Positions 12,409 to 46,087 of a stretch of 46,087 nt of DNA are shown piece by piece. The stretch is taken from positions 1-46,087 of the forward strand of contig LXFE01000124.1 of assembly GCA_001929475.1 (NCBI GenBank). The letters run 5' to 3'. The notes beneath the pieces were generated by a model. It ran no database searches and was not told where the DNA came from. It saw only the letters and a program-made list of their open reading frames with translations. Position numbers and translations under genes: made by a program. How positions within the stretch are numbered: the stretch's first letter is position 1; every line of letters begins with the position of its first letter. The DNA is from Neolecta irregularis DAH-3 (lineage: Eukaryota).

Positions 12409-12470
12409 AAAATGTTTCTGTGGGGTGGTGGTATCATCCAAATCACATTTCTAATGCAACTTCTACTTAC

Positions 12471-14374
12471 ATGCCACCCCGCAAACGCACCATTATCGCG
12501 ATTTCCTCGGCTGAAGATGTCGCAACAGCTCCACCGCTAAAGAAATTGAGGACAACAACGACTCAGAAGAAGCTACCCGCAAAAAGGAGACCCCAGAGAA
12601 GAAAAGCCCAACCAACACTTGTAATTGATGAACTGAACGATGCTATCTCCTCCGACGGCGAAACTTCCATTCCGAGGGCAAGCCAGACAAATTCATCGCA
12701 ATATATTTTACGTCAGACGCTCAAGTTTCCTGATACTAATAACGTTGCTGCCACAGCCACGGACGGGATTCTGTGGACTGAGAGATATCGACCTGATCTA
12801 TCTACTCTAGCTATACATAAAAAGAAAATTGAGTCGGTACAGAAATGGATCGACATGCCTTCATCGGTATGTCTCTCGGGATGGATTGCTCCTCAATTAA
12901 TAGAAAATACTTATTCTATCTGGACCAGCAGGGTCCGGAAAAACTGCGACCGTCGAATCAATACTTCAGGGACAGGGCATCGCAAAACTTGAATGGGAGA
13001 ATCCAATGTTTCGAAGAGCTGCAGATGGTACAGTCTACTTTGTCATTAGAAGATCTTGATATCAAGAACATGAAAGTCTGATATCGAAGTTTCAAGAATT
13101 TTTAATCCGCGGGGAGAGATACCCAAATCTCATTACGGAAAAATACCCGCACACAGATCATCGAAAAGTCATCATTATCGAAGACATTCCCAATACCTTC
13201 TGCTCCCCCGACTCCAAACAATCTTTTAGGAAAATATTAAACCAATTCATCTATTCAACTCGTTCAAACTTCCCGCTAGTAATAATAATTTCAACTACTG
13301 AAACGCCAGATCAGTCAGATAATTTGACACCACATTCGCTCATTGGCTCCGAGATTCTTTCGAAATGTATGCATATAGAGTATAACTCTTGGCATACTTC
13401 GGACTAATGGAAGATTCAATCCAATAGCAAAGACATACATACAAAAGGCTCTTCTTCAAATAATTGAAAAGGAATCCTTAGGACTATTAGAGCCCGAATA
13501 TATCTCGGCAATCTCTGAATCAGGTGATATTAGATCTGCCATTAACACACTTCAATTTCAAACTATTGGCTCCCAAAAATCGAAACGGAAGTTTGCGAAG
13601 CGGAAAAAAGGGGAAAGAGTACTTCTCTCAACAATAGATCAAGAACTGGTGAGTTTTGCTGAACGTGATGTCAAAGTCGATGCATTCCACGCATTTGGGA
13701 AAATAGTTTACAATCGACGTATCCTCTTAACGCTAGAATAAGCTAAATTAAAAGGGATTGGAGACGATCCCGAGGATCCACCACATCCGCCTATGCAAGG
13801 GTCTTTACCAGACCACCTCAGTTCCTGGGCTCGAAGAAAAAGTAAAGTCGATATCGAAGTACCAACCCTAATTTGAGGAGGTCACCAACAAACAGGAATT
13901 GCTGTCGAATTTAACAGTGGACGTCTCAACCTTTCTGAACGGAATTTTTGAGAACTATGTATTGAGTTGCTCTACAATCGGAGAAATCAGTTCGACCCTT
14001 GAATCACTCTCTCAAACAGATTTTCCAATACCCTACAACTTGAGAGTATTCAATTTACTTTGTTCATGACTAACCTTAAGGCAATGGAGTCTCTCCTTGC
14101 TTCTTCTACCATTCGCTCAATATTGCTAAACCTTCCCTCCCCGGTGCTGCGCCTAAAAAAGGACAACAAGTTGTATTGGCCAGAAGTTTCGCGAGTTCTC
14201 AAACAACGAGACAATTCCTTGGAAGATTTGGGCGGGAAGCATTGGTCGACCTCCGAGAAATACGGGGGTCTCGGACGATTTGGACGGGAAAAACTGGGCA
14301 TCGTGAAGGCAGAGAAAAGAGTTATTGAAAAGGAAACAGAAGAAGAAATTTACGACTTGATTGAAGACTTTTAG
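12471..14374 (+). CDS. RAD17: DNA damage checkpoint clamp loader Rad17/Rad24
   Basis: LWTERYRPDLSTLAIHKKKIESVQKW, Walker A GPAGSGKTAT, IIIEDIPN, SESGDIRSAINTLQF and C-terminal DLIEDF; multiple short introns. Confidence 0.92.
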
Positions 14375-28639: not shown

Positions 28640-29582
28640 ATGTCTGATTCCCAGCTTAGCTTTGAGGATATATACACTGATGAGGTGAGAAACTTATTCT
28701 AAATGATGAACATTTTAGGAAGACAACGTCATTTTCAATCAACAAGACGTCGTCGTTGTTCCAATACAATCCATTGATTCCTATTCTCGACAAAACAGCA
28801 TATTTACTGACCTTGATTGCACGCAGCTGTTTGCAGAGATGAATACTCTTCTCGCGGAGAACGAAACTATGAGGATCAAATGTCGAGATCTCGAACAGGC
28901 CTTTAATGTTGAAAAGGGATATACTCATATTCTTCGTGAATCAAACAGGGTCTTTCACATGAGTTTTCAGGATGCCAAACTTTCCGAAAATAACTGCCAA
29001 TTCGAGCTTTCCGAAATGAAAGCAAAACTTAATCTTGCAATTACCGAACGTGAAGAGCTTGTCGCTGAGATGGGCAGCTTTGGAAATTTCTCCGGTGCGC
29101 TGAAGGATATGATATTTGAAGTCACTACTTTGAATCGAGAGCTCTCCGATCAGGTTGAAGGCTTGCAGTTTCAACTTGTTGCCCGCGGGCAATTGATGGA
29201 AGTAATGGACCTAAATCATATGAAAACAACGAAAGAATTGGAAATTTCAAACAAGAAGCTAAAAGAAATGGAAAATGTCCCTTACATGAAAGAATCGGAT
29301 GTTAAATCATTGGTCGGAATTCTTGAAGATCATATTCGAGAGATCGTCAGTTTGGTTCCGGAGACTCCAACTTGTAGTGCGCACCGTTTGAATCCACAAC
29401 TTGGTCAACCAGATGATCAACCTTCGGTACAGAATGGACTACAGGACTTGTCGAGAAAATTAGTTTGTTCTCTCTGGACATTGGCCTGTAGTTTTGCGGG
29501 TGAGAAGAGAGAATGGTTACGGCGTGAATTGGAAGGCCTCGAGATGGGGATCGAAGCGGCCTGGGGGAACATGGATGAGTAG
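28640..29582 (+). CDS. Uncharacterised coiled-coil protein
   Basis: ATG 28640 and intron 28685-28718 join to the 247-aa ORF, which has E/K/L-rich heptad-like segments. Confidence 0.6.
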
Positions 29583-29834: not shown

Positions 29835-30678
29835 CTTGTAAGCAGACTTGCTAACAAGTAAGCAAGTCCAAGTCTGGATGCATATTTCAGCCCTTTGGAT
29901 TTACTTGGTATTTTACTGCATACTTGGATTTGCTTGGATAGACTTGCTTGATAGATTTCGTTTTCGGCAGGCAGGTGGACAGGTGAGCGGCTTGTATTTT
30001 TTGACAATCAGGATAGGTGCAATACAATATTCACTAAATAACCAAAATTACTAACATAAAATGATTTCTATCTGGCTATTTCTTTCATTGGTGAAGTATG
30101 CTGCACATACAAGTTCATGTCGTATCATCCTGATCATTGTGTCACGTGATCCGTGATCCGTGACAAATCTTGCAGTGTAACTTTGAGCAAATGGCAATCA
30201 ATTCAGAGTTGAACAACCAACCAACGTATTCAAACGTAACAAACATTATCAGGATCAGAATTTAAAGACAACACTAATGCTCTGCCAACAAATTCAATAC
30301 AAGAATAAAGGGGGACCTTTAAGAATCATCACATGGAGGAAACTACCAAACCGCCATACAACCTAACAGCCTGCCAGATGATTCTCCCGGTGGGTGGTTG
30401 GATCTCTTGGTGAAGGCGGGAGGCATATAAATCCGGTCTGAGAGGCCCCACCTGCCAGAGAGGCTCCGGCGGGCGGACAGTTCAGATCTTTTCGGCAGGC
30501 AGCCGGCATATTAATCCTCCCCCAGTGTTGCGGATGGACCATGGACTTAATCCAGTCCATTAAAAGTCCACGGATAAAGTCCATGGACTGGACTGTGGAA
30601 AAAGCCTGGCCAACCCTAAGCAAGTAAGCAAGCAAATTTGACTTGAAAGGTTTACTTATTAGCAAGTCTGCTTGTAAG
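29835..30678. mobile_element. Nested MITE-like cluster bounded by a 29-bp inverted repeat
   Basis: 29835-29863 and the reverse complement of 30650-30678 match at 25 of 29 positions. The interval contains copy 2 of the 24770-25050 repeat, ACTTG/CAAGT sub-repeats, and a ~96-nt unit CAGTGTTG..CAACCCTA (30523-30618) full of TGGAC/GTCCA motifs. Confidence 0.65.
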
Positions 30679-30930: not shown

Positions 30931-31716
30931 TCAAGATTCCTGCAATAATGTTGCTGTTATGACACAAGGAATACCCAGCGTCACAACGAGTACACCGGTA
31001 GCCATGCCTACCACTACAGTCGTGATCCATAAACCGGCTGTCTTGAGAAGGATGCGAGACATATGTAAACGCTGCGTCCAGGTCATCCTTTTTACATGTG
31101 CTATGCCAGTTTTGACGATCTGCACTACGTTTCCAATTTTCTGCAGCACACGGGTTTGGTAATACTTATCCGTTAATCTATCCCAGTCTTTGGAAGAAAT
31201 GAGCATATGATGAAGACAGACGTCGATGAACCGAAGGATTTCTATGTCACCTGTAGTAGTCTTTTCAACGGGAGTTTCAAGTGCAATATCGATTCGGTTC
31301 TCTATTTCTGCGCAGAGTTCGCGATGGAGAACATAAGCTTCATAAAGAAACCCATGGACACTGAGCTCCCGTAAAATAAAGATAACTTGTTGAGCAGCAA
31401 TGACTGGTTGAACATGACATATATTCCATACGCTGCGTTTGAGAACCTCGCTAGCAGGCCGAAGATGGGTGGATATATTTGCGTTTCCATGACGTAGGTA
31501 ATCGATAGTCATCAGACGAGTCGTGCGAGATGCCTGGGAGAAAAGGCGAACGTCCAGCGTCTCAAGCTTTGAAAGGACAAGAAATTGTAATTCGGGAGGA
31601 AATTTCTCGATTGTGATGTGGCCATTATTACAATCGGCCAAAGTATTCTCGGTACAGCGATGAGGAGATGATCTCAGATTTGACTGCGATTCAATATCAG
31701 GAATCGAAGTATTCAT
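30931..31716 (-). CDS. Intronless F-box-like protein (family member A) with C-terminal hydrophobic segment
   Basis: 261-aa ORF with F-box pattern IEKFPPELQFLVLSKLETLDVRLFSQASR; C-terminus GLWITTVVVGMATGVLVVTLGIPCVITA. Confidence 0.7.
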   Translation of the reverse strand: MNTSIPDIESQSNLRSSPHRCTENTLADCNNGHITIEKFPPELQFLVLSKLETLDVRLFSQASRTTRLMTIDYLRHGNANISTHLRPASEVLKRSVWNICHVQPVIAAQQVIFILRELSVHGFLYEAYVLHRELCAEIENRIDIALETPVEKTTTGDIEILRFIDVCLHHMLISSKDWDRLTDKYYQTRVLQKIGNVVQIVKTGIAHVKRMTWTQRLHMSRILLKTAGLWITTVVVGMATGVLVVTLGIPCVITATLLQES

Positions 31717-32569
31717 TGGTCGAACTGGTTGTAAGTCAGGTCTCTAATTGCAGCCCAGCACAACTGGTAACAAAATCGATTCGATAATAAGGGTATTGTT
31801 TGCGGAGAAACATCGGCATCAGGAGGTTATTATACCTATGGATATGCTACGTTGTCTATATCGTCATCGTTTATATCAACGTAACAACGACAACTCTTCA
31901 GGAAGGCAAGTTCTCATAGATCGAGATAGCGCTGAGAATAGCCATTCTTTAGGAGGTATGAAACCTATACGTTTTATTATCAGTTCAAATGGTACGAGCA
32001 AGCTGCAGGAACACGAAGTCAATCTTGGAACAAACACGGACAAATTGTCGCTGGATCAAAGAATCCCTGGCTCAGTGGAGACGCCACCAAAATAAATCAT
32101 CAATTTCGAAATTGATACAGTGATTTCCTAGAATCGTGGTTCAGTCGAACGACTTCCACGTTCTAGAGTAGAGGACGATAATTCCTTGGTTATAAATTGA
32201 CTTTGGAGGAAGAGTCCTGTTTTTCGATTGTGCTCATATTCGAATCTCAAACGAACATGGGTACGTGGAGACAGGCGGATAGATCCCGTGTCATGGACAA
32301 TTTGGTGTCAATCTCTACTCCTAAATCGGATCTATATTTAGCGATTACTATGACATCAGAGCAAAAATGTTCCATAATGCTATTGGCTAACAGTTGCAGG
32401 AAAGCTATGATAAAATCGCTTTGAAAAGAAAAGGGCCAAGAGCCCATATATATCTATGCAAATATTATGAAAGACAAGATGTAAGTAAAAATATACAATG
32501 TTTAAACAATCAAGACTGTATCCAAAACACCCATTAAACTCCAACATATTTCTATAGGAAGCACAACCT

Positions 32570-33950
32570 TCAAGTAGAGTGAACGGAAATCGTATCCTGT
32601 ATTCGGCTACTTCTGCTCTCCACATCACTTTGATCGTTGGGATGTATACTCTTGTTGCTTTTGCGCTCTTGCCCCTTCGCCTCCCTCGCAACCCACCATC
32701 TTCCCAAACCAGTCAGGATTTGTCCAATGACAAGTTGTTCACCCTGATAGAGAACTAAAGGTATCGTAAGTTTACCACGAATAATCTGACTGAATCCCTG
32801 GTATTGGGAATGGATTAGAGGAATTCCGACTGCAGGAGTTTTTCCGGCGCCGCAATAGGCTATTGCGATGGCCTGTTTCTTCGAGAAGCCGGCTGCTAGA
32901 GCTAAGTACACGCAGAGGATGGTAAAGACTAGATAAAGGGCGATATTAGTAAGAAGCATAAACAAGATGCTGTTGGAGGAAAGGGACTGAAAGGCTCCTG
33001 AGGAGAAGGCGTTGGAGAATGTGGCCCTTTACTGATCAGTTTGAAAGATAAAAGTCAGTACCAGATTAGAAGGAGAAGCATGAATGAGCCGACTTTGTTT
33101 AGGTAAAGTTTCTGAAATACGGTGTCGACTTTTTTCGGATTTATTGTTCTGAGGAATTGGCCAACGATCTGTTTGTCGTTATAAGGAAAAGCAAGGATAG
33201 CTACCAGGGCACCAATAACGCAAGTTCCCAATTGTTGCAGGACCCTGGCGTAGATTTTCCCTATACTACCTTTTGGTTTTCCGGCCTCAAATCCTGTGCT
33301 TTCGCGAAGATACAACTGCAATAGAGCCGGGGTGATGAATGTTCCCAAGACGTTTCCCAGACAGGCTTCGATAAGTGCGGCAGCATCATCTCCACCCGCT
33401 TTTTTGGTCATAATTACATTCGAAGCGATGGCAGTTGCAGTGCAACCGAGAATAATGAATCCTGTCAAGATATAGAAATCGATTTTGGAGGTATAAAGGA
33501 CCAAGTAAGCGATCGACAAATTCACAACGGAGAAGAGGACAAAGGAGGTTAGTTGAGTAACGAGATGAAGCTTGTAGTTTAAGGCATTCTGGAGGAGGGC
33601 TTGAGAAGAACTTGAGGCGCCTGGTGGTGTTAGCCATGACTCCCAGTATATTGTAGAATAAAATAGAAAAATAAACAATTGGGCATCGAGAAGTGCTTGT
33701 TCGGTTTGATACTTTATCCCCAGCGCTCTCTGCCGGCAGAGGGTTATGGAAAAACAGACACACCCGAAAGCAGAAAGATCATCGCGACAGCTCCATATTC
33801 GATGGTATACTCACTACGTACGCTTCCTCCTGTTTTCCCGACGTCTGGGAATGCATACGCAAGGCCTATCAATACACCCAGAGTAACTAAAAACCACTGG
33901 TCGAGCAGAAAGAGCAACCCAGATTTTGCATAGTCTGTCCATCGCGGCAT
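32570..33950 (-). CDS. RCH1: SLC10A7/SBF-like solute carrier, Rch1 (regulator of calcium homeostasis) type
   Basis: LDQWFLVTLGVLIGLAYAFPDVGKTGGSVRSEYTIEYGAVAMIFLLSG, ATAIASNVIMTKKAGGD..A.IE..LGNVLGTFITPAL, YCGAGKTPAVGIPL and IPLVLYQGEQL; long intron 33763-33621. Confidence 0.88.
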
Positions 33951-34003
33951 GGAGGATCAGCCGTGTGCAGAGTAGGCCGTAGTGGTGGTGGGGTGCATGA
34001 GCA

Positions 34004-34151
34004 TTACGTCACGTGGATCCAGATGCCCAAGTGACGTCACTGCAAAAAAGGGCCGCCCAAAGAAAAGTAGACAGCCACACTGGGATCGGGAACTGGGCAA
34101 CATGGGATCCGCGAGCAGTGCGGGCCTGCACAGCCACCGCCGCACAGCCAC
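34004..34151. promoter_or_regulatory. Divergent RCH1/F-box promoter with CRE-like, E-box and Crz1/CDRE-like sites
   Basis: TTACGTCA 34004, CACGTG 34010, GTGACGTCAC 34031, and ACAGCCAC at 34071, 34130 and 34144 (GTGGCTGT on the minus strand). Confidence 0.55.
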
Positions 34152-34288
34152 TGCAAGCGGGTGGCGGCAATACTCTGTACATTCTCTCCTCCAGAACCAT
34201 TGGCAAAGGTCATGGACCAGGGTTTCTGTAGTTCTCGCCAATCGGAGGTCTTTGCATCTCAGCCTATCTACCAGCTCTCCCTTGTCCA

Positions 34289-34966
34289 ATGTTGTGGGAT
34301 CCGCTACTCGGAGAGATCAAGGAACTTGTCCTTCATAATCTTGAACTACGTACCATTCGCAGCCTGACGGCGACATCAGTTGGCAACGCGGGATTCTGCT
34401 CGCAGTATATGAAACACCATAAAGTCGCGAATGTCTACATCGTAAAACGGTTTCAATATCTCGTCAAACACAATTATCTTGAGGGAAGCATCCGCATTCT
34501 GCCGCGTGTTTCAAAGGCGATGAACACTGCTGTCAGACTTCGTTTCTACGAGGAATGGAACAACCTCCATGGAAGTTTACACAGCCTTCTTACAAAGGCA
34601 TTTGAGGACTACGTCGAAATCGAGAGTCCGCCGCAAATCGAGACGTCTACCTGCATGTATATTTACAAAGCTGTCCTATCAGCGGGATTCGAAAGCATTA
34701 AAATGGTCTTCGGTTGGTATCCAAGGCACTATCTAATCGACAACGCAACATGTGTTTACCATCTTCTACAGTTTACACCCATGATGAGAGTATTCGTGGA
34801 TCAGGTGTTAGATATCAAAACATTCGCGAGATGGTATAGCTCATTTGAGTGTTCAGCGGAATTGCTGTACTTTGATTATACAAGACTAAGACAATTAGGC
34901 GTAAGTCAGCAAGTTCTTCTGGATATCTGGGATGACGTCGATGATCTGAGAGCTGCATGTATTTAG
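34289..34966 (+). CDS. Intronless F-box-like protein (family member B)
   Basis: 225-aa ORF starting MLWDPLLGEIKELVLHNLELRTIRSLTATS (degenerate F-box); downstream similarity to members A and C. Confidence 0.6.
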   Translation: MLWDPLLGEIKELVLHNLELRTIRSLTATSVGNAGFCSQYMKHHKVANVYIVKRFQYLVKHNYLEGSIRILPRVSKAMNTAVRLRFYEEWNNLHGSLHSLLTKAFEDYVEIESPPQIETSTCMYIYKAVLSAGFESIKMVFGWYPRHYLIDNATCVYHLLQFTPMMRVFVDQVLDIKTFARWYSSFECSAELLYFDYTRLRQLGVSQQVLLDIWDDVDDLRAACI

Positions 34967-35239
34967 TCGTATTGAACAATTCGAGGTGTTTCTTGGTTCC
35001 GAGATATGCGAAGCAATGGATGAGACTAGATATCCAGAAACTTTATCGCCAGCGAGTGGAAAATCGATTTCTATATTCAACTACAAGAGTCTCATTTTTC
35101 AGGTCTTCTTTTGTTTGTCAAAAATCGATTCGTTCTCACTAGCAGCTTACCGGCTGTCCGTTTGCGGGATGATTTGCACCTTCTCTGCAAGCCGCTGAGT
35201 AAACCACACAATCTGAAGAAAATCAGCCGATTTACCAAG

Positions 35240-35650
35240 AAAATAGACGATACAACTCTATCAACAGCAACAGAGAGACTCAGATGACGCCCGTGTAACA
35301 TGATTACGCATAGAATCAATTACTCAAGGTATACAATTGCCCAGATAAGGAGGTGATCCAAACAGTCTAATATGGAGCAATCACAAGAAGTGACATGAAC
35401 CCCATAAGCGCTGACGGTTTTAAACATAATGTCGAATACAGAGAAATTGACAGGATCTCTCTCAAATTGTCCTTCTTCAACAATCATGGTCAGCCAAATC
35501 GCACCGACAAGAAAATAGAGGTCATGGGCCAACAAAGTGTGCAACTGAACACCGAAAAACTTGTGTGTGGTTTCGAAATCTTCGACCTCGTCGTGCAACG
35601 GCTTTGAAGAGTAGATTCCGAGACTTTGTTCTTTATAGAGATTGGATGAT
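35240..35650 (-). pseudogene. C-terminal fragment of a Trk-type K+ transporter
   Basis: NLYKEQSLGIY..LLAHDLYFL..IVEEG..FSVFDIMFKTVSAYG, then after a stop/frameshift ILCVIMLHGRHLSLSVAVDRVV (cf. Trk NVYEEQSLGIY, FEIVSAYG, RGRHRGLP..LDRAI). No upstream part is present. Confidence 0.75.
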
Positions 35651-35921
35651 AGCATGGAGAGGGTTGGGTAGATAACTATGTGATTTCCATGGATTAATAA
35701 TAGTGAAATGCAATATGTTATTAAATGTATATTCCAGATGCAAAGCTTGTAAAAAAAAATATAATAATTCAAAACATTGCGGTGTACACAATTATGCTCA
35801 TAAATTTCTACTTCCACAAACCACTTCTATTCATTATAAACCAATACCACATTACGGCTCTCATAAACTCCTTCTTCATTCTAGTTCATACATGTCCTGT
35901 CCCTTTCCCTCCTCGTGTAGG

Positions 35922-37024
35922 ATGGACTTGGCAGTTACTCCTACTATCCATATGCCAATCAAGTGGACTCTTGAAGGCACACTTAAACAAATCAACAAGA
36001 TATATCCATATTTGAATGCTCCTGAAGCCATTGAAAAGTTCTTTGAGTCTTATACATGGGTGTACTACCATATGCCCCAAAATAGCAAATGGACTTTTGC
36101 TGCAGAAAGATTATTGACTGAAGCCAGAGAGATGGTATGATTGAGAATATTGGATTATATGCCAACTTATAGATTGAGAAGGATGATCCTGACTTTTATT
36201 CCTTGCTCTGCTCAGTAACGCAAGACAATACACAACATTTACCTTTATCGGAGCTTATCGACATCTCAGTTCTTCCCGTCTTTGTTAATGAAGTCATTGA
36301 TTTGGAAACAGTTAGTATTATTAGTGATCCTATTTCTGACAGAGAATGTACTCCTACTATCTCCCTTCCCTTTGGAGTTCAAGTTAAAGAGGAGCCTATA
36401 TCTCCCAAATTCCCAGAAAAGGACATGCACGAGCCTGTACCTTCTGCTGAATCTACTCAAATAAACATCAAGCTTGAAGAGAAGGATACAACTCAGTTGA
36501 ATACTACCATCGTTGAGCCTCTCAAACAGCCTGGTCCGGATCAAAATGGATCGTCTTCTCCAAGCATACCAGAGTATAGTAATTGTGCTATGAATGATGA
36601 TTCCAAGGCCATAGGGACAAATGATTTACCACATATTGCAGACTCTCCTTCAAGAGCTGTATATTATCAACCACCGTCTTCGACGCAAGCATACCCTCCA
36701 ACTCTATACCATCAACCCCAAATCTATCCTTACCACCAAGAAGAGTTCGACCATAACCATCAATTCGCTACTGGCCATAAGTATGGACAAATGGGTTTCA
36801 TGCAGATGAATTTTCAAGAGGCGGCTATGTATAACCCTCATTACTATCACCCTTCAATAAGCTCCCTTAATCCCAACGCTCCTTCTCACCCTTATCAATA
36901 TCAAGGGCATTTATCTAAAGTCAACTCTCCTATACCTATTCTTAAAAAAGCTAAAAGCCTGCCTAGTGTTTTAATGAAAACTGTCGAGGACAATACTTTG
37001 CATGGGAAGAAATTATGTAGTTGA
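35922..37024 (+). CDS. Orphan protein with P/Q/Y-rich low-complexity C-terminal half
   Basis: Two ORFs joined in frame by intron 36135-36172 (GTATGA..TAG); no recognisable domain; start and end uncertain. Confidence 0.45.
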
Positions 37025-37505
37025 TCCATAGATCCCGAATTTGACAGTGTTTCATTAAATATAAAGGTGTATAAAGAGATTGGCATACTGTAGTCCCTTT
37101 AAAGTAGGATTGTTACCTTATTCTGTTAATATGAGCCTAATGCAGTCAACAAAATTATGTAGGATTTGCTTACAAGTCTAAATCAGTGATAATTATCTTC
37201 TAAAAGAACCTATCCGCAAAATACAACAGTTTAGGTACGCTATTTTACTGAATCCCATACTTTACCAAGGTGAACAAATCATTTTGATCATGCAGCGCTC
37301 GTTGTGGAGATTGGGGCAAGTGAGCTCAATTTTCTTGTCGTGTCAACGAAATAAGGATCACACGTGGAAAGGATGTGGAGAAGAATGGAATAGGTAAAAT
37401 TAGTTAAAAAGGCAAACGGCACCTTCAGAGTTCGAAATGGGGACGAAGGCTTATTGACCAATATCGTATCATTATTACAAAGACGATAGCGGGCGCCTCA
37501 GATCT

Positions 37506-37914
37506 TCAGGTTCCCCACTTTCTCATAATTCGGCTGGCGATATGTAATACGAAAACGCTGGCGATAAATCCAATAGCCAAAACCATAACGATAATCGGGT
37601 CCCTGCAATGTGAGTGGATTTGTGAAGACGACAAACGTACACTTTTAAGCCAGGTGCGTCATCAGTATACAATTTCAACATCGTTGTAGTAGAACCACCA
37701 GCACCAGCAACTCGAGTTCCAGCCGGTCTCTTATTATTTGCAGCTGTTTCCTGAGCTGCTCGTCGTCTGCAATCCATGTTAAAATATGCAGAAAAGAAGG
37801 TACCCTGCCTAACTAATGTTCGAGCAACTCCTAGAGGAACACCAGAATCCGATTGGGAGGCAGAACCTGACTAAGACATGTAAGCAAGTGCCGTATTGAA
37901 AGCGACTATACCAT
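37506..37914 (-). CDS. SBH1: Protein translocon Sec61 beta subunit
   Basis: AGAGGSTTTMLKLYTDDAPGLKV|DPIIVMVLAIGFIASVFVLHI; the ATG is immediately followed by an intron; three introns. Confidence 0.93.
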
Positions 37915-39183
37915 AATGATAAGCGGGATTATAACAGGAGGTTGAAATTGGATGGTTCAGGGAGTGACACGCCACCTACCTAAACAAAATGCTAATATCT
38001 TCGATAAATACAAAATTATATATTCTCAGGTAGGAAATAGTCGCTTGGGTTTCTGAGAAAGTTCTTCCTCGCAACCGTCGGACTCGCTTGTAGAGTTTAT
38101 GTATCCCTCTTGTAGTTACTACTAGAACCATTAGAGTTTTCCGGCTCAAGGCTAAATCTAACGAGATATGTGAACTAATATTCGTGCTGGCTTCTCTGAA
38201 ATTTAATATGTTCCCGATGTCCAGCTATTCGGATGCTGAAGATCGTTTCTGAAAGAAGAAGTCGGGACTCTTGATATGTCGCCTAGCAGTCTGTCGAAAT
38301 TCAGTTTCTAGGTTCAGACGACTCAAGTTTTATATTCATATTGATCACGGGAAAGAGAATATATATTTCACAAGGTGTTGCTAATCAAAGCTGATAAGTA
38401 TGATTGATCGTGTAGAAAAGTGGTATCAGTGAACCTCAGACGTCTTAGGAAGCCTCAACACTCAACGGTGAATGATTAATGATTTTTTACGGCAGTTTGT
38501 GCTTAGTTAAAGCGGCCATCACAGGAGTGAGTTTGAATAAGTCGTGGCAATGGAAGATTATGAGATAAGTATTGTCAGCACAGAGCTTTCCAGAGAACTG
38601 TCAGAAGCTGGAATTTACTTCTGGGATCTAGAGTAAGTCACTCTAGATCCCAGTGTCGGATCTCGGGGCCTGATTACGTCCCCACAGCTCTGGAGTTGTC
38701 CAACATGAAATATAGAGTTATAGGTAGGTGGTAGGAAAATAATATGTTAATTGGGAGAGGGTGGGAGGAGTAATGATGTGAGGTGGTCGGGGGTAACGTA
38801 ATAGTAAAGTGTAGATGATAGGGAAAAACTGATGAAAATGTGTGGTGAACGGTGTACCCAACCTCTATTATGATATTACTATCAAGTCTACCAAGTCCAA
38901 GTAAGCAAGTCTGAGAGTGACTTCTGAAAGTCGGCTTTGCGGATAACTGTCAGCCCTGTGGGTGGATGGGTATATTTGATATACATGCCAAGCAGTTGGA
39001 GACTTGTCGAGCTTGAATAAAGATCAAGGATTATTCCTATGTCGGCTAATCTCAGGATCAAATATACTGAGAAAAATTCTAAACAGATTGATTCATCATA
39101 ACTTTCATCTTATCCATCACTACTCAACAAACAAGTTCCCTATATGCCAGACGATATTCTTGACCAAGTGCAAAAAACATTGT

Positions 39184-39822
39184 CTAATGGAAAGTTGCGG
39201 GTCGTTTGGCAGAGAAGATTGTCTTTGATTTGTTGATACGGTGGGGCAGAGGGAATTTCAAGTTGCTCTCCAATAATTGTCGGATATAAGGTCGCTTGAT
39301 GTCTGCGGACTTTTTAACTTCGACCACTTGGAGAATCTAATGCCCAGTTAGTTTGAAATGTTGAAGAATCATTTACGTTGATAGAGCTAAATCGAGCACG
39401 ATGTCGTGAGGCCATATCTTGATACAATGCCTTGACGGCATCTGTTCGACTCATTTCTCGGTATTCTTTGTACATGTTGTGGGTCCCGGATCGAGAGTCA
39501 TACCGGATGAATATACCATAGGTCTTGACCTTGAGAGGTCGCTTTTCGGAGATCTAACATCTTTGTCAAACCTACGATCATCTTTTAGACAGTTGAACAT
39601 ACCACATTGATCGAGATAATTTCGCCATTGCTCTTCTTGACCTTTCTGAGTTTCTTGAGGAAGTACCAGAATCGAGACTTGGCAATGACTTGATTGGTAG
39701 CAAAAAGTCGCATCCGAAAGAGCTTTGGGACTAGAGAATTTAGATTCGATGTACAGAAGAAAAGCAATACCTGGCTCGCTCTCTGAGGGCAAGCGCCGGC
39801 CAATAACTTGGTATTCGTGCAT
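39184..39822 (-). CDS. RPL20: 60S ribosomal protein L20 (eL20/L18a)
   Basis: [75 protein letters not shown]; three coding introns. Confidence 0.97.
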
Positions 39823-41129
39823 GACTCTTGTAGGTGACGATTTGGTAAACTGATACCAGGCGAGTCGTGGATGACTTGAGGGTGGTGAGGAGGTGACTGC
39901 TGTCGACCGCTAATTTCCACAATCATAATTTACGGCATCTCTACCAGCTGGCTGTTACGACAACGGCTCTTAAGCGGAAGCCTTTTATCGCTTACCATCG
40001 ATTGAGTTGGTCTTTGTCTATGACTACTGCTCAGTTCTTTTTGGATAGAAACCGTATTAAGCTGTAGTTATTCTTCTAACCTCTGAAGACCTCAGCACTA
40101 CCTCAAATGCCCTACTTCACAGTTGATTATATTTTGATTGTGAAAAAGCAAAAAGATGATACATAACTAAGAGGAGAATTGATCTTAATGGGTGCTTGAA
40201 GAAAGAAATGTTCTTTGAGAAATATCCGCGTAAAATTCCATGGACGGATGATTGAGGTGAAGCACTAAGTATGAGCTATTTTAACTTGTCCAGAAATATT
40301 GAGATGGTCAAGGGGAAAATCTTGGGTCAAGGAAAGGAGTTTTAGTCATGAGGCCATGTTTTCTCCAGTTCTTGACTATTGATAATGGAGTGAATCCCAA
40401 CTAGTACTGTCTCATAGAAAGTTTGCAGTCCATAGCCTCCTTCGACATCTAAGGTTGACCAGGAGATGATGAGCGAGGATTGTGGCTATGTTGACCACTT
40501 AATTATCGTAGCAAATCTCTGGGTAAATAAAATGTTGAACATTCTTTGTCTGAGACACCTTATTTGGGTTTTTTGAGAGAATCCCTTAAGATTCTGAAAC
40601 GTCCAACGACTTAAAGGCATGCCCGGAATGATCCATATACAGTTTCGGCAAAAATGGTGGAGTGAATAATATAGACCCGATATTGGATCAGGTTGAAGTT
40701 GTGGGGGCTCGAAGTTACCCACAGTAATAAAATCCACCGGGTTGCCACCGTCACCACATGACCGTTGGGGGTAACTAAAGGAACTGTCATGGGAAGCCGC
40801 CAGTGTCATGACCTCGCTTATATGGGGCTATCACAGGAATTTCCAGACAGAAAGTGTAAGAACATGAGTTCCCTGGCGAGCGCTTAGTGAAAGAGTGATA
40901 TCGCTTGATTTCTAAAGCCCCGATGCTCTTCAAGGAATCGGCAGTTTTATCTAATATAAAATCATTTATAGAAGATTATATATAAGGCTCAAATATTAGT
41001 CCTCGTGGCGAACGCCTTCGCATCATCTTGGTTTAAGATTGGCGCGAAAGATTGAGTACTCCACTAATCGATATATAAAACATTCCGACTAATCATCAGC
41101 TCTCTTCGGAACATCGCAAAGTTAAACCT

Positions 41130-43311
41130 ATGTCAACATTCAACGGCTATCTACGCGAGTTTCCAGATATAGCTAGCATGTGCCGATGACTTTTTGGATT
41201 ATACTCATCTCTTATAGTCGATTTCTTTCGTGATCGACAACCACACCCTCCTCCGAAAGCCCTTTTCCTCTCACATGTTCATACAGATCATCTACGAGGA
41301 CTTGATACGTACAAGAATAATTCATTCGTTTACTGCTCAAAGGCGACAAAGGAGGTAGGTTTCTTGGAAAGAGCTGTTTTAGAATTTCCCTAGTTACTTT
41401 TAAAGTTACAGACAAAACATGATAGAGTAAATCTCGCTGAGGGAGTGCTAGAGAAGCCAAATTTTCGGTACCGTAATTTGAGTTATCGGAAGGACCTTCT
41501 CGTATACGCTAACGTTAATCCTTCCAATTGACGATATAGAGGGTACTGCCGATGGAAACGCCAACAGTAATTGATATTGGAGGGCCAAAGATTCGTATAA
41601 CTTTATTTGATGTGAATTTGCTCCATCTTTCTTTCTGATATGTCAGGCAAATCATTGTCCCGGAGCCTGTATGTTTTTGATTGAAGGTAACGGGAAGGCG
41701 GTATTGTATACCGGTGATTTTAGAGGTAAGTCTCAATATTCGCTTGGATTAATAGACTAGCGGAAACCTGGTGGAGGAATTCACTCGCCCGAAATGCTGC
41801 CCTGCTCCCGTATCTGAATTCTAAAGTCAAAAAGTTGGATTGCATATACCTTGATACAACGTTTGCGTCCAAAGATCCTCGCTGCATGCACTTTATTTCC
41901 AAGGTATCTCTTAACAACATAGGTAGAGCATTTCTAACTGAAAGACAGAATCTGCGATGTCTTTAGTGGAAGAAATGGCAAAATATCCAGACGACACTTT
42001 CTTCCATTTCAATGCCTGGACTCTTGGTTACGAGGAACTTTGGCTAGCAGTAGCAAATGCTTTCGACTTCAAGGTCACAGTCCGATTAAATATCATTAAT
42101 CATATAGATTCACGTGGATCGATATCGCAATAGTTTGTTCCATTCAATTCGTAGTCCCGATTCATATAACCACGGGCCATTTCTTGCTGGGTATAGTTAC
42201 ATCAATAACCAAAAACCAAACGCAAATCAAGACATAGAGGGTATGCTTACACAAAATCCAACGACTAGGTTTCATAGTTGTGAAGCAACCGGCTCATGTC
42301 CTGTTCGCGACGATGCTAAGAAACAGAAAAGGCTCATTCAAATTGTTCCATATGTCACGTGGAGCGAACATAATATCAGTTTGCGAAGAATTGTTGCTGT
42401 CAGAAAAGGCGGTTTAGAAGAGACTGCGAATATTTTGAGTGAATTTGCTAAGGAAAGGGTTATTCCAGAGAGAGAGGAAGTCCAGAAAGTTGCGAAAAGA
42501 TTAAGCATTGACTTGAGTCCTGAAAGGAAAGCGATTCTTTGGGAAAAGTTGGATGATTTGGATGGGACTGTGATCAAGGAACCCGGCCATACTGTCCTAC
42601 GAGGAACCAAGCTCGAAGAAGACGGAGAGGACCTACCATCGATTATCGTATAACGATATCAACCAGCTGGCTGATATACAGTACATCCCTTATAGTCGGC
42701 ATTCATCACTCTCAGAACTTCAAGATTTCGTCGGCCTTTTCCGTCCAACAACTGTCTTTCCCTGCGTCGCAGACAACGAACGTCTCTTTTACCTGGACAT
42801 GAAAGATTGTTTCGCAAATTATGTTTCCGGAAATTTCACCTTCTTTAACGAAATGCTTCTTTGTCAGCACAGAGACTCGGTCGTCGACAGTCGCATAATT
42901 CTCGAAAGGGTCCTTCAAGAAAAGTGGGCTTACGATGACTTGGATATCGATACCGATGGCGAAGAACTTTCCATAGAATCGTTGGAACTTGAAACAAGTG
43001 AAACGCAAACCTCTTTCTCGAAAGTCCTTGCTATGGCCGCCGAACCAGCTTTGAAGATCCAACAGTTGAAGAAAGAGCTAGCGGATGACATGCCAATTGA
43101 AGACACCACTAAGGATCCCACTGGAAGTTACATTAGTAGCAATTCCCAAACGCAACGAAGTGGAGAGGATACAAGTCAAGAATCGGTCTTCTACTATGAA
43201 AGTGAGACCGCTGATCCTGAAAAAGTCGAATTTTGGAAGGAATGGATCGAACGTGGCTGCGAAATTAAAATGAGCTGCGTTAAATGGCCAACAGTCGAAG
43301 TCGAACTGTGA
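41130..43311 (+). CDS. DCLRE1C: Artemis/DCLRE1C-type metallo-beta-lactamase beta-CASP nuclease
   Basis: [76 protein letters not shown] and [11 protein letters not shown]; the first intron is GC-AG (41176-41217). Confidence 0.9.
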
Positions 43312-43555
43312 CAAACGTTTCATTATTGTCCGACAATATATTCTCACAAGACTGAGTAGTTGCAAGCATAGGTTTCGCCTTAAGATGTGCTGTGTCACTC
43401 AGTTAACATTCTAGAACGATCGACTGTGGAACCTTTTCAGGAAACCCATTGATGACTATCCATTTACTCAAATCTGTTGTATGTTAAATTTCCTGATAAG
43501 TTGAAGTGGAAAATTCCTTACACCGCTCTCTTCCTATTGATTTCTGATACCTACA

Positions 43556-44317
43556 ATGATGCCAATCCCTCCTCATTTCGCCTTTCATCAGCACTCGTTC
43601 CACTCTGTTTGTCGTGCACGAACATCACTTCCATCAGCTACCTATTTCTTGGACTCGAGGCAGAGACAAGTTTTGTCGCCTTTTACAACCCATCTTTCTC
43701 CTGATTTGAAATCGCAAATCCTGAATTATCTCAACATCAACGACATCATCGCTGTAGGGAGGACATCGAAATCAAACCTCGAGATATGTAAAGCATACTA
43801 TGCGCGTCATAGCCAAAAGTTGAGACCATATAGAGAACAAATCAATTTTACGTTCACAAGATATCTAAATGCAAGTCAGACCAATCCAATCAATGCCGCT
43901 TTCAAGATTTCAAAGTTGCAGAGTGAATTAGCTCGTTTGGGCTTCATGAGAGAATACGCAATATTAGCCACTCGATTCGAAGAAGAGGAGATTCTACCGT
44001 CCCGACCTGGAGTCTCTTTCAATCCAAGACTGCTTCAATTCTATGCTCTATGTATCGCGAAAGGAGATTTCCGTATAACTAAAGGACTTTGTACTCTAGA
44101 AAATTTGATGAAATTTCGATCCATTGAATCTGCTCGATATACCTGGTGGTTTTATCGAGCTCTCTGGGAGAACCCGCTTGATGATAAGGCAGAAAAAGGA
44201 CTAAATTATTGCTTCCAGTATTGCTGTGAAGTTGCGCAATGTTGTGAAGTTAACCAGAATGTTAAGAAGGCATACATTGAACTTTGCGGATTGATGTATA
44301 GCTTGGGATGTTATTAA
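43556..44317 (+). CDS. Intronless F-box-like protein (family member C)
   Basis: 253-aa ORF with F-box pattern FTTHLSPDLKSQILNYLNINDIIAVGRTSK; shares a downstream motif with member A. Confidence 0.7.
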   Translation: MMPIPPHFAFHQHSFHSVCRARTSLPSATYFLDSRQRQVLSPFTTHLSPDLKSQILNYLNINDIIAVGRTSKSNLEICKAYYARHSQKLRPYREQINFTFTRYLNASQTNPINAAFKISKLQSELARLGFMREYAILATRFEEEEILPSRPGVSFNPRLLQFYALCIAKGDFRITKGLCTLENLMKFRSIESARYTWWFYRALWENPLDDKAEKGLNYCFQYCCEVAQCCEVNQNVKKAYIELCGLMYSLGCY

Positions 44318-44669: not shown

Positions 44670-44938
44670 TCGACGGCTCACGACATGAAAGCCCATGAAT
44701 CCTTTGAATGGTTTTCATAAATGTCTCACCAAGTCAGATATTTTTTCCGACTTTTCTATTCCTTAAATTCTTGACGACTTATGACACGAATGTCTCACTG
44801 AGTAGGATATTTTTTCCAAGTACAAGATTTCTTCTTTTCTTTAAATTATCGACGGCTTGAGACAGTGACAGTCGTAAATACTGGGAACGGGTTTCATAAT
44901 TATCTCACCGAGTGAGATATTTTCTCCAAGTATATAAA
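44670..44938 (+). promoter_or_regulatory. Three degenerate tandem promoter repeats plus TATA box
   Basis: T(G/A)TCTCAC.-.AGT..GATATTTT..CC recurs at ~44722, ~44791 and 44901, each preceded by a GACG(G/A)CT motif; TATATAAA at 44931 lies upstream of ATG 44984. Confidence 0.55.
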
Positions 44939-44983
44939 AGACATCTATTCAGCAAACTTGTAAACTTGTAAACTTCTGCCAAG

Positions 44984-46087
44984 ATGAAGGTTACGCTTAT
45001 TGTCCTCGGTCTCGTTACCGTCAGTGCTGTAGGTGTCCAACAGAATGGTATGAAGAAATCACTTCTAGTAAGCATTTGTTTGCTAACAACTTCAGGAGCT
45101 GCTCAGTCAGTCTCTCCTACTCAAGTTGATGCTTATCAGCCTTCGAATGTTGTTCGACCCGCTGAAATAAATCCACGAATCAAGAATAATGATCCATTCT
45201 CGGAAATAACTGTAGAGGAACAGCCACCTTTATCCAGTTCTGATTCCTCGCTTCCTGAAACAACTTCGTGGGTCCGTTCAACCCTCACTTCGGTGTTCAA
45301 CGCTTTCAAACCCAAAAAGAGATCGAGCGCTCCAATACGTGGTAATAATTTCACCTGCCATCAAGTTAATATTTTGTTAGTAGCAAACAATCACGCCTAC
45401 CCTTATGCTATCCTGCCTGAGAATGCGTCAACTGAAGATCGAGGGAAGAATGATCATCAAACTGTCGACAATCCTGAGGAGATTCTGTTCAAAGGTGAAG
45501 AAAGCAAACGAACTAATACTCCTGAAGACAAATCTGAGAAGAATGATAATATAGGTATGTTTCCACTCACTTCTCATTCCTCATTTGGAAGATTCCGTAC
45601 TACCTAAGGCTCATGACGATTCTGCACATGAAGAAATGGAACAAACTGATGTTTCTGTTAAGAGTTTAGGTATGCTCTATTCAGGTCTCTTTTCTCATTT
45701 GGCAGAAATTGCTCAAACACCTCCAAGATTTTATAAATGGTATACTACAATGCGTGATTACGTTGTTGGATCAGGAAAGAAAGATGAAATTGTGGATGTA
45801 GAAACCGAACCAAGCCTTTCTGGTGAAGAATCTGGATTTAAGAAGGAATCTGATAACAATGGTCATCTGAGTATGTCTCCAATCTGTTCCAATTTCTTAT
45901 ATTGTCAGAAAATCCAAACAGTCATCCTCAAACTGCTGACGTACAGCCAATTCGACCTGAGGGGGGATCTGATAAGATACCCGAGGAGAAACCAGAGGAG
46001 AATGCTCCTCAAATTGTCCAAAATCCTGAGGAGATTCGTTTCAAGGATGAAGAAAACAAACGAACCCAACTTTCTGAGAAATCTGAC
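44984..46087 (+). CDS. Secreted acidic repeat protein, multi-exon, truncated by the window end
   Basis: Signal peptide MKVTLIVLGLVTVSAVG; short introns (e.g. 45048-45095); internal repeat NPEEILFKGEESKRT / NPEEIRFKDEENKRT. Confidence 0.7.

Follow-up and report, generated by a model that had tools for sequence, protein, structure and literature searches.

Three genes with F-box-like N-termini, one with a putative tail anchor, within 13.4 kb of the Neolecta irregularis genome

INTRODUCTION

Contig LXFE01000124.1 of Neolecta irregularis DAH-3 (NCBI GenBank assembly GCA_001929475.1) comprises 46,087 nucleotides, all of which were analyzed and are referred to here as the window. Between positions 30931 and 44317 it carries three uninterrupted genes, called A, B, and C below, whose predicted proteins each begin with a segment resembling an F-box. 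This arrangement raises the question of what these proteins are, how far they resemble one another, and how their genes came to lie so close together. An initial annotation of the locus had proposed that the three genes are a dispersed family of adaptors for the Skp1-Cul1-F-box (SCF) ubiquitin ligase that share an uncharacterized helical domain and that may have been moved by retroposition or by a transposable element (TE).

On balance, we favor a reading in which A, B, and C encode lineage-specific F-box-only proteins that would serve as SCF adaptors, with A tail-anchored in a membrane and with the three genes originating by local duplication. An F-box-like motif is common to all three proteins, a further helical module is common to A and C only, and a long hydrophobic tail is present in A.

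RESULTS

Genes A, B, and C are uninterrupted coding regions

Gene A (30931-31716, minus strand) is a single open reading frame (ORF) of 261 amino acids with an F-box-like segment and a putative hydrophobic anchor at its C-terminus. Gene B (34289-34966, plus strand; 225 amino acids) joins an F-box-like N-terminus to a helical body that is otherwise unrelated, and gene C (43556-44317, plus strand; 253 amino acids) joins an F-box-like segment to a cysteine-rich C-terminus. All three run from an ATG to a stop codon at exactly the positions initially assigned to them, and every peptide string quoted at that time is present. Base-composition arithmetic at 43% GC predicts about 0.01 stop-free runs of at least 225 codons per 46 kb, and therefore these ORFs are not the product of chance. 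A codon log-likelihood score trained on nine conserved exons of the window gave values of 0.060, 0.076, and 0.069 for A, B, and C in the named frames and was positive nowhere else, with values of -0.11 to -0.25 when these genes were read in other frames or on the reverse strand. The conserved exons themselves score higher, at 0.10-0.30. Public protein collections contain exact copies of the A and B proteins, each as an unnamed singleton, and the exact C protein is not found in these collections. The public annotation may lack gene C or may carry a different model of it.

The initial annotation had emphasized that the genes lack introns in an otherwise intron-dense genome. They are indeed single ORFs, but they are not strongly anomalous in this respect. 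Other ORFs in the window are likewise uninterrupted over 283-478 codons, including orphan ORFs of 283-319 codons, and thus the lack of introns is not special to A, B, and C. No canonical intron was found within the three genes with a strict pattern of donor, branch, and acceptor, which is weak evidence given that neighboring introns use looser donors. Separately, the last 66 nucleotides of gene B (34901-34966, plus strand) run from GTAAGT to TAG. Were they removed as an intron, the B protein would stop two codons later and lack its acidic 21-residue tail.

An F-box-like motif begins each protein

Among 24,736 Pfam models, the F-box family PF00646 is the best match of both A and C, at the same N-terminal place and over the same profile positions (2-32 of 43 in A). 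The match spans residues 37-67 of A (31516-31608, minus strand; E value 0.011, 16.1 bits) and residues 46-77 of C (43691-43786, plus strand; E value 0.0076, 16.6 bits), and in C the F-box-like family PF12937 follows with an E value of 0.12. That two proteins should pick the same model from so large a set at the same N-terminal place is very unlikely to be due to chance, and we regard this agreement as strong evidence. A match of A to Cbl_N (E value 0.03) was set aside as sub-threshold helical noise.

In B, the F-box-like segment (residues 5-44; 34301-34420, plus strand) is recognized by its similarity to the segments of A and C. The three N-terminal segments share a gapless core alignment with invariant L, L, S, Y, and H residues, the last two of which stand at the end of the motif as Y-x-x-H in A and B and as Y-x-x-x-H in C. 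When the F-box segments were compared by Smith-Waterman alignment, the observed score was reached by no shuffled sequence for A-B or B-C (0 of 1,000 in each case) and by 8 of 1,000 for A-C. These comparisons uphold the earlier description of an N-terminal F-box-like motif in each protein, with Pfam scores for A and C that fall below threshold.

The three proteins also recover one another in profile searches. Hidden Markov models (HMMs) built from two full-length proteins were used to rank the 591 six-frame ORFs of the window, and the omitted member was ranked first for A (E value 0.0032), second for B (E value 0.02), and first for C (E value 0.017). The ORF that ranked above B in the search with the A and C model (12411-12989; E value 0.0076) is a chance match, since it is a Rad17 exon. 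An HMM of the F-box segment revealed no fourth member in the window at an E value below 0.1. In a search by protein-language-model (ESM) features, the neighbors of B are F-box clusters (top score 0.95), and its ten best family-bearing matches all belong to one family, with 166 shared features, just below the guide value of 170. The neighbors of C in the same type of search are F-box clusters at a score of 0.88, which we treat as a lead only.

Structure prediction adds to this picture mainly for C. Its AlphaFold2 (AF2) model has a mean predicted local distance difference test (pLDDT) score of 50.6, with values of 59-79 over residues 42-144. Helices are modeled in the F-box region at residues 49-56, 61-68, and 72-84 (pLDDT 64-79). 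The F-box of FBXL5 from a complex with Skp1 (6vcd_B; Z 5.3, root mean square deviation [rmsd] 1.9 Å, 44 residues aligned, 23% identity) can be overlaid on residues 44-88, and the F-box of yeast Cdc4 (3v7d_D; Z 4.8, rmsd 2.1 Å, 45 residues aligned, 24% identity) on residues 41-87. These two superpositions rank 29th and 47th among 409 chains.

A number of observations weigh against the F-box assignment. The PF00646 scores of A and C are under the curated cut-off of 20.5 bits, and B has no Pfam match whatever, such that the Pfam scan suggested in the initial annotation gave an F-box match for two of the three proteins and only at sub-threshold level. Z scores of about 5 are in the range common for helical arrangements. 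A Foldseek search with the C model yielded no match at an E value of 0.001 or less among 415, and two F-box proteins, Cdc4 (rank 27) and AnkB (rank 32), had E values of about 3. The AF2 model of A has a mean pLDDT of 47.2 and is unusable over residues 1-89, where values are below 50, and the Atlas model of B has a pLDDT of 0.44. When a profile of A and C was aligned to B with hhalign (P 0.0067; 101 collinear columns, 39-144 versus 6-107), the probability was just 5.7%. Searches of the PDB by profile, using either the three proteins or their F-box segments, returned no F-box chain, the sole row being the unrelated DAP3 at an E value of 1.8, and single-sequence phmmer searches of the PDB with A, B, and C returned nothing at E values up to 10. 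F-boxes usually carry a tryptophan in helix 3 and a Leu-Pro position. In what we take to be the consensus, the helix 3 tryptophan is missing from all three proteins, and B has glycine in place of the proline.

These observations bear on two other explanations, namely that the motif is a Skp1-binding F-box that acts outside cullin ligases, as is reportedly the case for yeast Rcy1 and Ctf13, or that it is a degenerate helical segment that does not bind Skp1 and belongs to proteins of unrelated functions. Both gain from the sub-threshold Pfam scores, the absence of a PDB sequence match, the low model confidence, and the consensus positions that B appears to lack. They fit poorly with the top ranking of one family independently for A and C, with the F-box neighbors of B and C by language-model features, and with the superposition of the C model on Skp1-bound F-boxes. 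We consider these explanations, taken together, quite unlikely. We judge it likely that A and C are divergent F-box proteins and, with less assurance, probable that B is one as well. No WD40 repeat, leucine-rich repeat (LRR), or any other Pfam domain was found in A, B, or C, in agreement with the initial description.

A helical module follows the F-box in A and C only

The initial annotation had assigned all three proteins to one paralogous family with a common, uncharacterized helical domain for substrate binding after the F-box. For A and C, a shared region is readily detected. BLASTP joins residues 41-168 of A to residues 49-167 of C in one piece that runs from the F-box through the following module, with 22% identity and an E value of 7e-4. 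The module corresponds to residues ~82-130 of A (31327-31473, minus strand) and residues ~86-137 of C (43811-43966, plus strand), and the similarity extends over ~55 residues.

To compare the proteins beyond the F-box without picking motifs, we started from the conserved H that closes the F-box segment, took the next 50, 60, 70, or 90 residues, and compared each pair with 2,000 shuffles. At these four lengths, the A-C score was reached by 0, 3, 0, and 9 shuffles. The corresponding counts are at chance level for A-B (317, 1,660, 1,510, and 488) and for B-C (298, 960, 691, and 256). Thus the module is common to A and C only, and the membership of B in a family beyond the F-box is unproven.

Some evidence does favor the inclusion of B. 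Both MAFFT and hhalign place the B segment R-F-Y-E-E-W-N-N-L opposite G-F-L-Y-E-A-Y-V-L of A and G-F-M-R-E-Y-A-I-L of C at collinear offsets, the 101 columns aligned by hhalign include the F-x-x-E-x-x-x-L motif noticed initially, and the three genes lie within 13.4 kb. However, most of the hhalign score comes from the F-box columns, and the signal of B is gone when the F-box is removed. Local alignments of the tails that involve B are reached by 186 and 138 of 1,000 shuffles. Likewise, the profile HMM check proposed in the initial annotation places each omitted protein at or near the top when full-length sequences are used, whereas with HMMs of the post-F-box regions the omitted protein falls to ranks 68, 57, and 155 among the ORFs of the window, and a profile of the three proteins yielded no relatives outside it among 2,244 candidates. 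A substrate-binding domain common to all three proteins is therefore unlikely in our estimate, and the original claim stands for A and C but not for B.

The AF2 model of C forms the module as a three-helix bundle (residues 86-106, 111-128, and 131-145). In a structural search, residues 88-161 matched only generic three-helix bundles, including designed mini-proteins (best Z 9.0), and for this reason no specific fold is assigned. Helical linkers are usual after the F-box in solved SCF receptors, and the module of A and C may be an extended linker of this kind. Under the reading that we favor, A and C would be old paralogs that have kept this three-helix module right after the F-box, and B would share with them only the F-box variant, with its gapless core and the invariant Y and H at its end.

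A hydrophobic tail sets A apart

The initial annotation also noted a hydrophobic tail on A, and this feature is pronounced. Residues 226-259 (30940-31041, minus strand) form a stretch of 34 uncharged, hydrophobic residues that ends two residues before the C-terminus and is a putative tail anchor. The maximum Kyte-Doolittle value over 19 residues is 2.31 in A (residues 235-253), compared to 0.96 in B and 0.66 in C, and by this measure B and C have no transmembrane (TM) segment. The 45 residues at the N-terminus of A are hydrophilic and include 6 acidic residues. By sequence criteria, A thus has the layout of a tail-anchored protein, in that its one hydrophobic segment lies within ~30 residues of the C-terminus and its N-terminus has no signal sequence.

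In tail-anchor sorting, a basic C-terminal flank is usual for mitochondrial tail anchors, and its absence points to the endoplasmic reticulum (ER) rather than to mitochondria or peroxisomes. The anchor of A is followed by Q-E-S and no basic residues, and so the ER or the nuclear envelope would be the more likely membrane. Such an anchor would tether an SCF complex to this membrane with the F-box facing the cytosol. The termini of C differ in character. Seven of its 11 cysteines are in the last 45 residues, and its N-terminus is basic and rich in hydroxyl residues, with no acidic residue before position 33.

A functional precedent for the layout of A may be found in the Arabidopsis protein CFB. 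As described in excerpts of the published account, CFB is encoded by a single exon and has an F-box near residues 36-67, a predicted TM helix near its C-terminus, and no other known domain, and it belongs to a group of three genes with AT2G27310 and AT2G36090 (PMC5853388). The same excerpts state that CFB binds the Skp1 homolog ASK1 via its F-box and that both its association with membranes and its overexpression phenotype depend on the TM segment (PMC5853388). Gene A resembles this protein in its single exon, in the position of its F-box (residues 37-67), in its C-terminal hydrophobic segment, in the absence of any other domain, and in belonging to a group of three. CFB differs in that it is a plant protein of 363 amino acids, and B and C have no TM segment. 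The likeness is an analogy of layout, compared by description only. No description of a tail-anchored F-box layout in fungi was found in the literature searched.

A more specific proposal can be framed as well. A, and perhaps C, could be lineage-restricted, membrane-tethered SCF adaptors of an early-diverging ascomycete. A would be a tail-anchored F-box protein that keeps an SCF ligase on the cytosolic side of the ER or of the nuclear envelope, in a layout convergent with CFB. C would be tethered by other means, for which its cysteines could be lipidated, and the module common to A and C would be a new unit that binds substrates or membrane partners. We regard this combination as rather unlikely.

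The three proteins are orphans at present sampling

An exhaustive phmmer search with A against 1.84 billion representative sequences recovered only A itself. Word-index searches recovered nothing for C and only B itself for B, and a profile of the three proteins run against 2,244 candidates recovered only A and B. Two metagenome scans produced 119 and 84 pattern matches, none of which was confirmed by tblastn. The earlier characterization of the proteins as lineage-specific, fast-evolving, and F-box-like is consistent with these results, in that the proteins are F-box-like and have no relatives outside this genome in these searches. As far as current sequence sampling goes, all three proteins are orphans, and one genome does not tell young genes from fast-evolving ones. 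Overall, these results are best read as pointing to F-box-only proteins that are either lineage-specific or fast-evolving.

The words F-box, ubiquitin, intron, and orphan are all absent from the main text of the Neolecta genome paper (PMC5309816), and in the one match examined from a full-text literature search for Neolecta and F-box, the two terms were unconnected.

Local duplication is favored over mobile-element transport

How the three genes came to occupy one 13.4-kb segment is a separate question. The initial annotation raised the possibility of dispersal by retroposition or by a transposon, as for mobile adaptor families involved in genetic conflict. Single-exon genes amid many tiny introns would suit such a history, as would an inverted-repeat pair downstream of A and a fragment of a TrkH-family gene downstream of B. 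However, the traces that we looked for are not present. In the 600 nucleotides after each of the three stop codons, no run of A is longer than 5 nucleotides. Direct repeats shared by the upstream and downstream flanks of a gene are at most 9 nucleotides long, and for the three genes 141, 129, and 136 of 200 shuffles reach this length. The genes show no similarity to one another at the DNA level (best blastn E values 0.23-2.7), their flanks have no sequence or element in common, and no repeat family encloses any of them, nor were tandem repeats found. The inverted-repeat pair does not enclose A, and the other orphan ORFs of the window are uninterrupted as well. The scar checks suggested in the initial annotation thus speak against its own proposal, and we consider retroposition or TE mobilization very improbable.

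An old local duplication offers a more suitable account. The presence of three F-box-like genes among about eight neighboring genes is unlikely to be due to chance, provided that such genes are rare genome-wide. The best explanation for the loose cluster would therefore be that the genes duplicated locally long ago and then diverged, rather than that mobile elements carried them there.

Neighboring genes and other features of the window

The window is eukaryotic and fungal in appearance, and its conserved genes are broken into many short ORF pieces, as judged from the ORF list and from Pfam scans. Pfam identifies THOC2, Atg3, ATP synthase alpha/beta, a PRK-type kinase, and the Rad17 exon among them, and no Skp1 gene was found in the Pfam scans of the window ORFs. 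A, B, and C are interspersed singly with intron-split housekeeping genes, as first described. These neighbors encode an SBF-like transporter, Sec61-beta, ribosomal protein L18A/L20, a Pso2/SNM1-type DRMBL protein, and an acyl-CoA dehydrogenase. The SBF-like transporter gene contains an apparent GT-AG intron of 35 nucleotides (33027-33061, minus strand) that joins two ORF pieces in frame and whose donor is GTACTG, compared to the GTAAGT that is common in fungi.

The SBF-like transporter gene and gene B are divergently oriented, and the intergenic region that separates them holds a GC-rich island (33950-34200) that reaches 66% GC per 100-nucleotide window, compared to ~43% overall. Two TGACGTCA-like palindromes are located inside this island, which is likely a shared bidirectional promoter.

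Two of the genes had been described as lying near repeat or pseudogene debris. This debris exists, but it is unconnected to the genes. About 350 bp downstream of B is a lone fragment of a TrkH-family gene (35323-35826, minus strand), a 168-codon ORF whose match to PF02386 (E value 2e-7) is confined to positions 361-447 of the 502-position profile. The 17 other minus-strand ORFs around it (34818-37497) match no Pfam family, and the fragment is probably a relic of a Trk-type potassium transporter gene. About 250 nucleotides beyond the stop codon of A is a pair of 27-nucleotide inverted repeats (29835-29861 and 30652-30678), which are 89% complementary and enclose 790 nucleotides. The pair is flanked by an orphan ORF (28719-29582) on one side and by gene A on the other, its arms are each nearly palindromic themselves, and the 27-nucleotide repeat was not found beside B or C. 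It is possibly a small non-autonomous element.

Further repeats occur downstream of gene C. Between C and the next ORF (44670-44927) are degenerate direct repeats of ~70-80 nucleotides with 72-76% identity, spaced 69 to 179 nucleotides apart. Beyond them, a pair of orphan ORFs without a Pfam match (44972-46085, plus strand) runs past the window end. Inside this pair, a stretch of 72 nucleotides (45442-45513) recurs 552 nucleotides further on (45994-46065) with 83% identity, which suggests an internal duplication of ~184 codons in a protein that lacks annotation.

DISCUSSION

Under the reading that we favor, the N-terminal motif of each protein would form the three short helices of a divergent F-box and probably dock on Skp1, and the fast-evolving, all-helical body would pick substrates for the SCF ubiquitin ligase. 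Among known systems, the closest class is that of the F-box-only (FBXO-class) SCF receptors (PF00646/PF12937). Like these receptors, the three proteins have an N-terminal motif of ~45 residues with the F-box hydrophobic pattern and no WD40 or LRR repeats, A and C have this class as their top Pfam match, and the modeled helices of C fit the F-boxes of FBXL5 and Cdc4. They depart from it in the sub-threshold scores of A and C and the failure of Pfam to detect B, in their own Y/H ending of the motif, in having no detectable orthologs, and, on the consensus assumed here, in missing the usual tryptophan of helix 3.

Organelle surfaces are known sites of action for fungal F-box proteins. Yeast Mdm30 is described, in the portion of the source consulted, as an F-box protein that acts on Fzo1, a GTPase of the mitochondrial outer membrane (PMC8678412). 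This fungal protein has no canonical WD40 or LRR repeats and works at the surface of an organelle, as A would. Two differences are that the putative anchor of A lacks a basic flank of the type usually seen C-terminal to mitochondrial tail anchors and that Mdm30 reportedly has no TM anchor at all.

The orphan status of the three proteins also has parallels. F-box families of mushroom-forming fungi are expanded and fast-evolving, and their divergence quickly erases orthology, according to excerpts of a survey of these fungi (PMC10282164). Expanded F-box families of nematodes are comparable in being lineage-specific with orthology erased by divergence, and nematode F-box clusters are the nearest neighbors of B by language-model features. 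However, the FTH and FBA_2 domains of the nematode families are absent from A, B, and C in Pfam scans, and these expanded families contrast with the three genes found within this window. A, B, and C are probably ordinary members of this known fast-evolving class, and nothing suggests that they were moved by transposons.

Fungi commonly carry lineage-specific F-box genes, which are regarded as a source of regulatory novelty, and the finding is therefore mainly of value for annotation. If the reading that we favor is correct, then three orphan substrate receptors would be added to the fungal ubiquitin system. The main interest of the locus resides in gene A, whose putative tail anchor would put an SCF ligase on a membrane.

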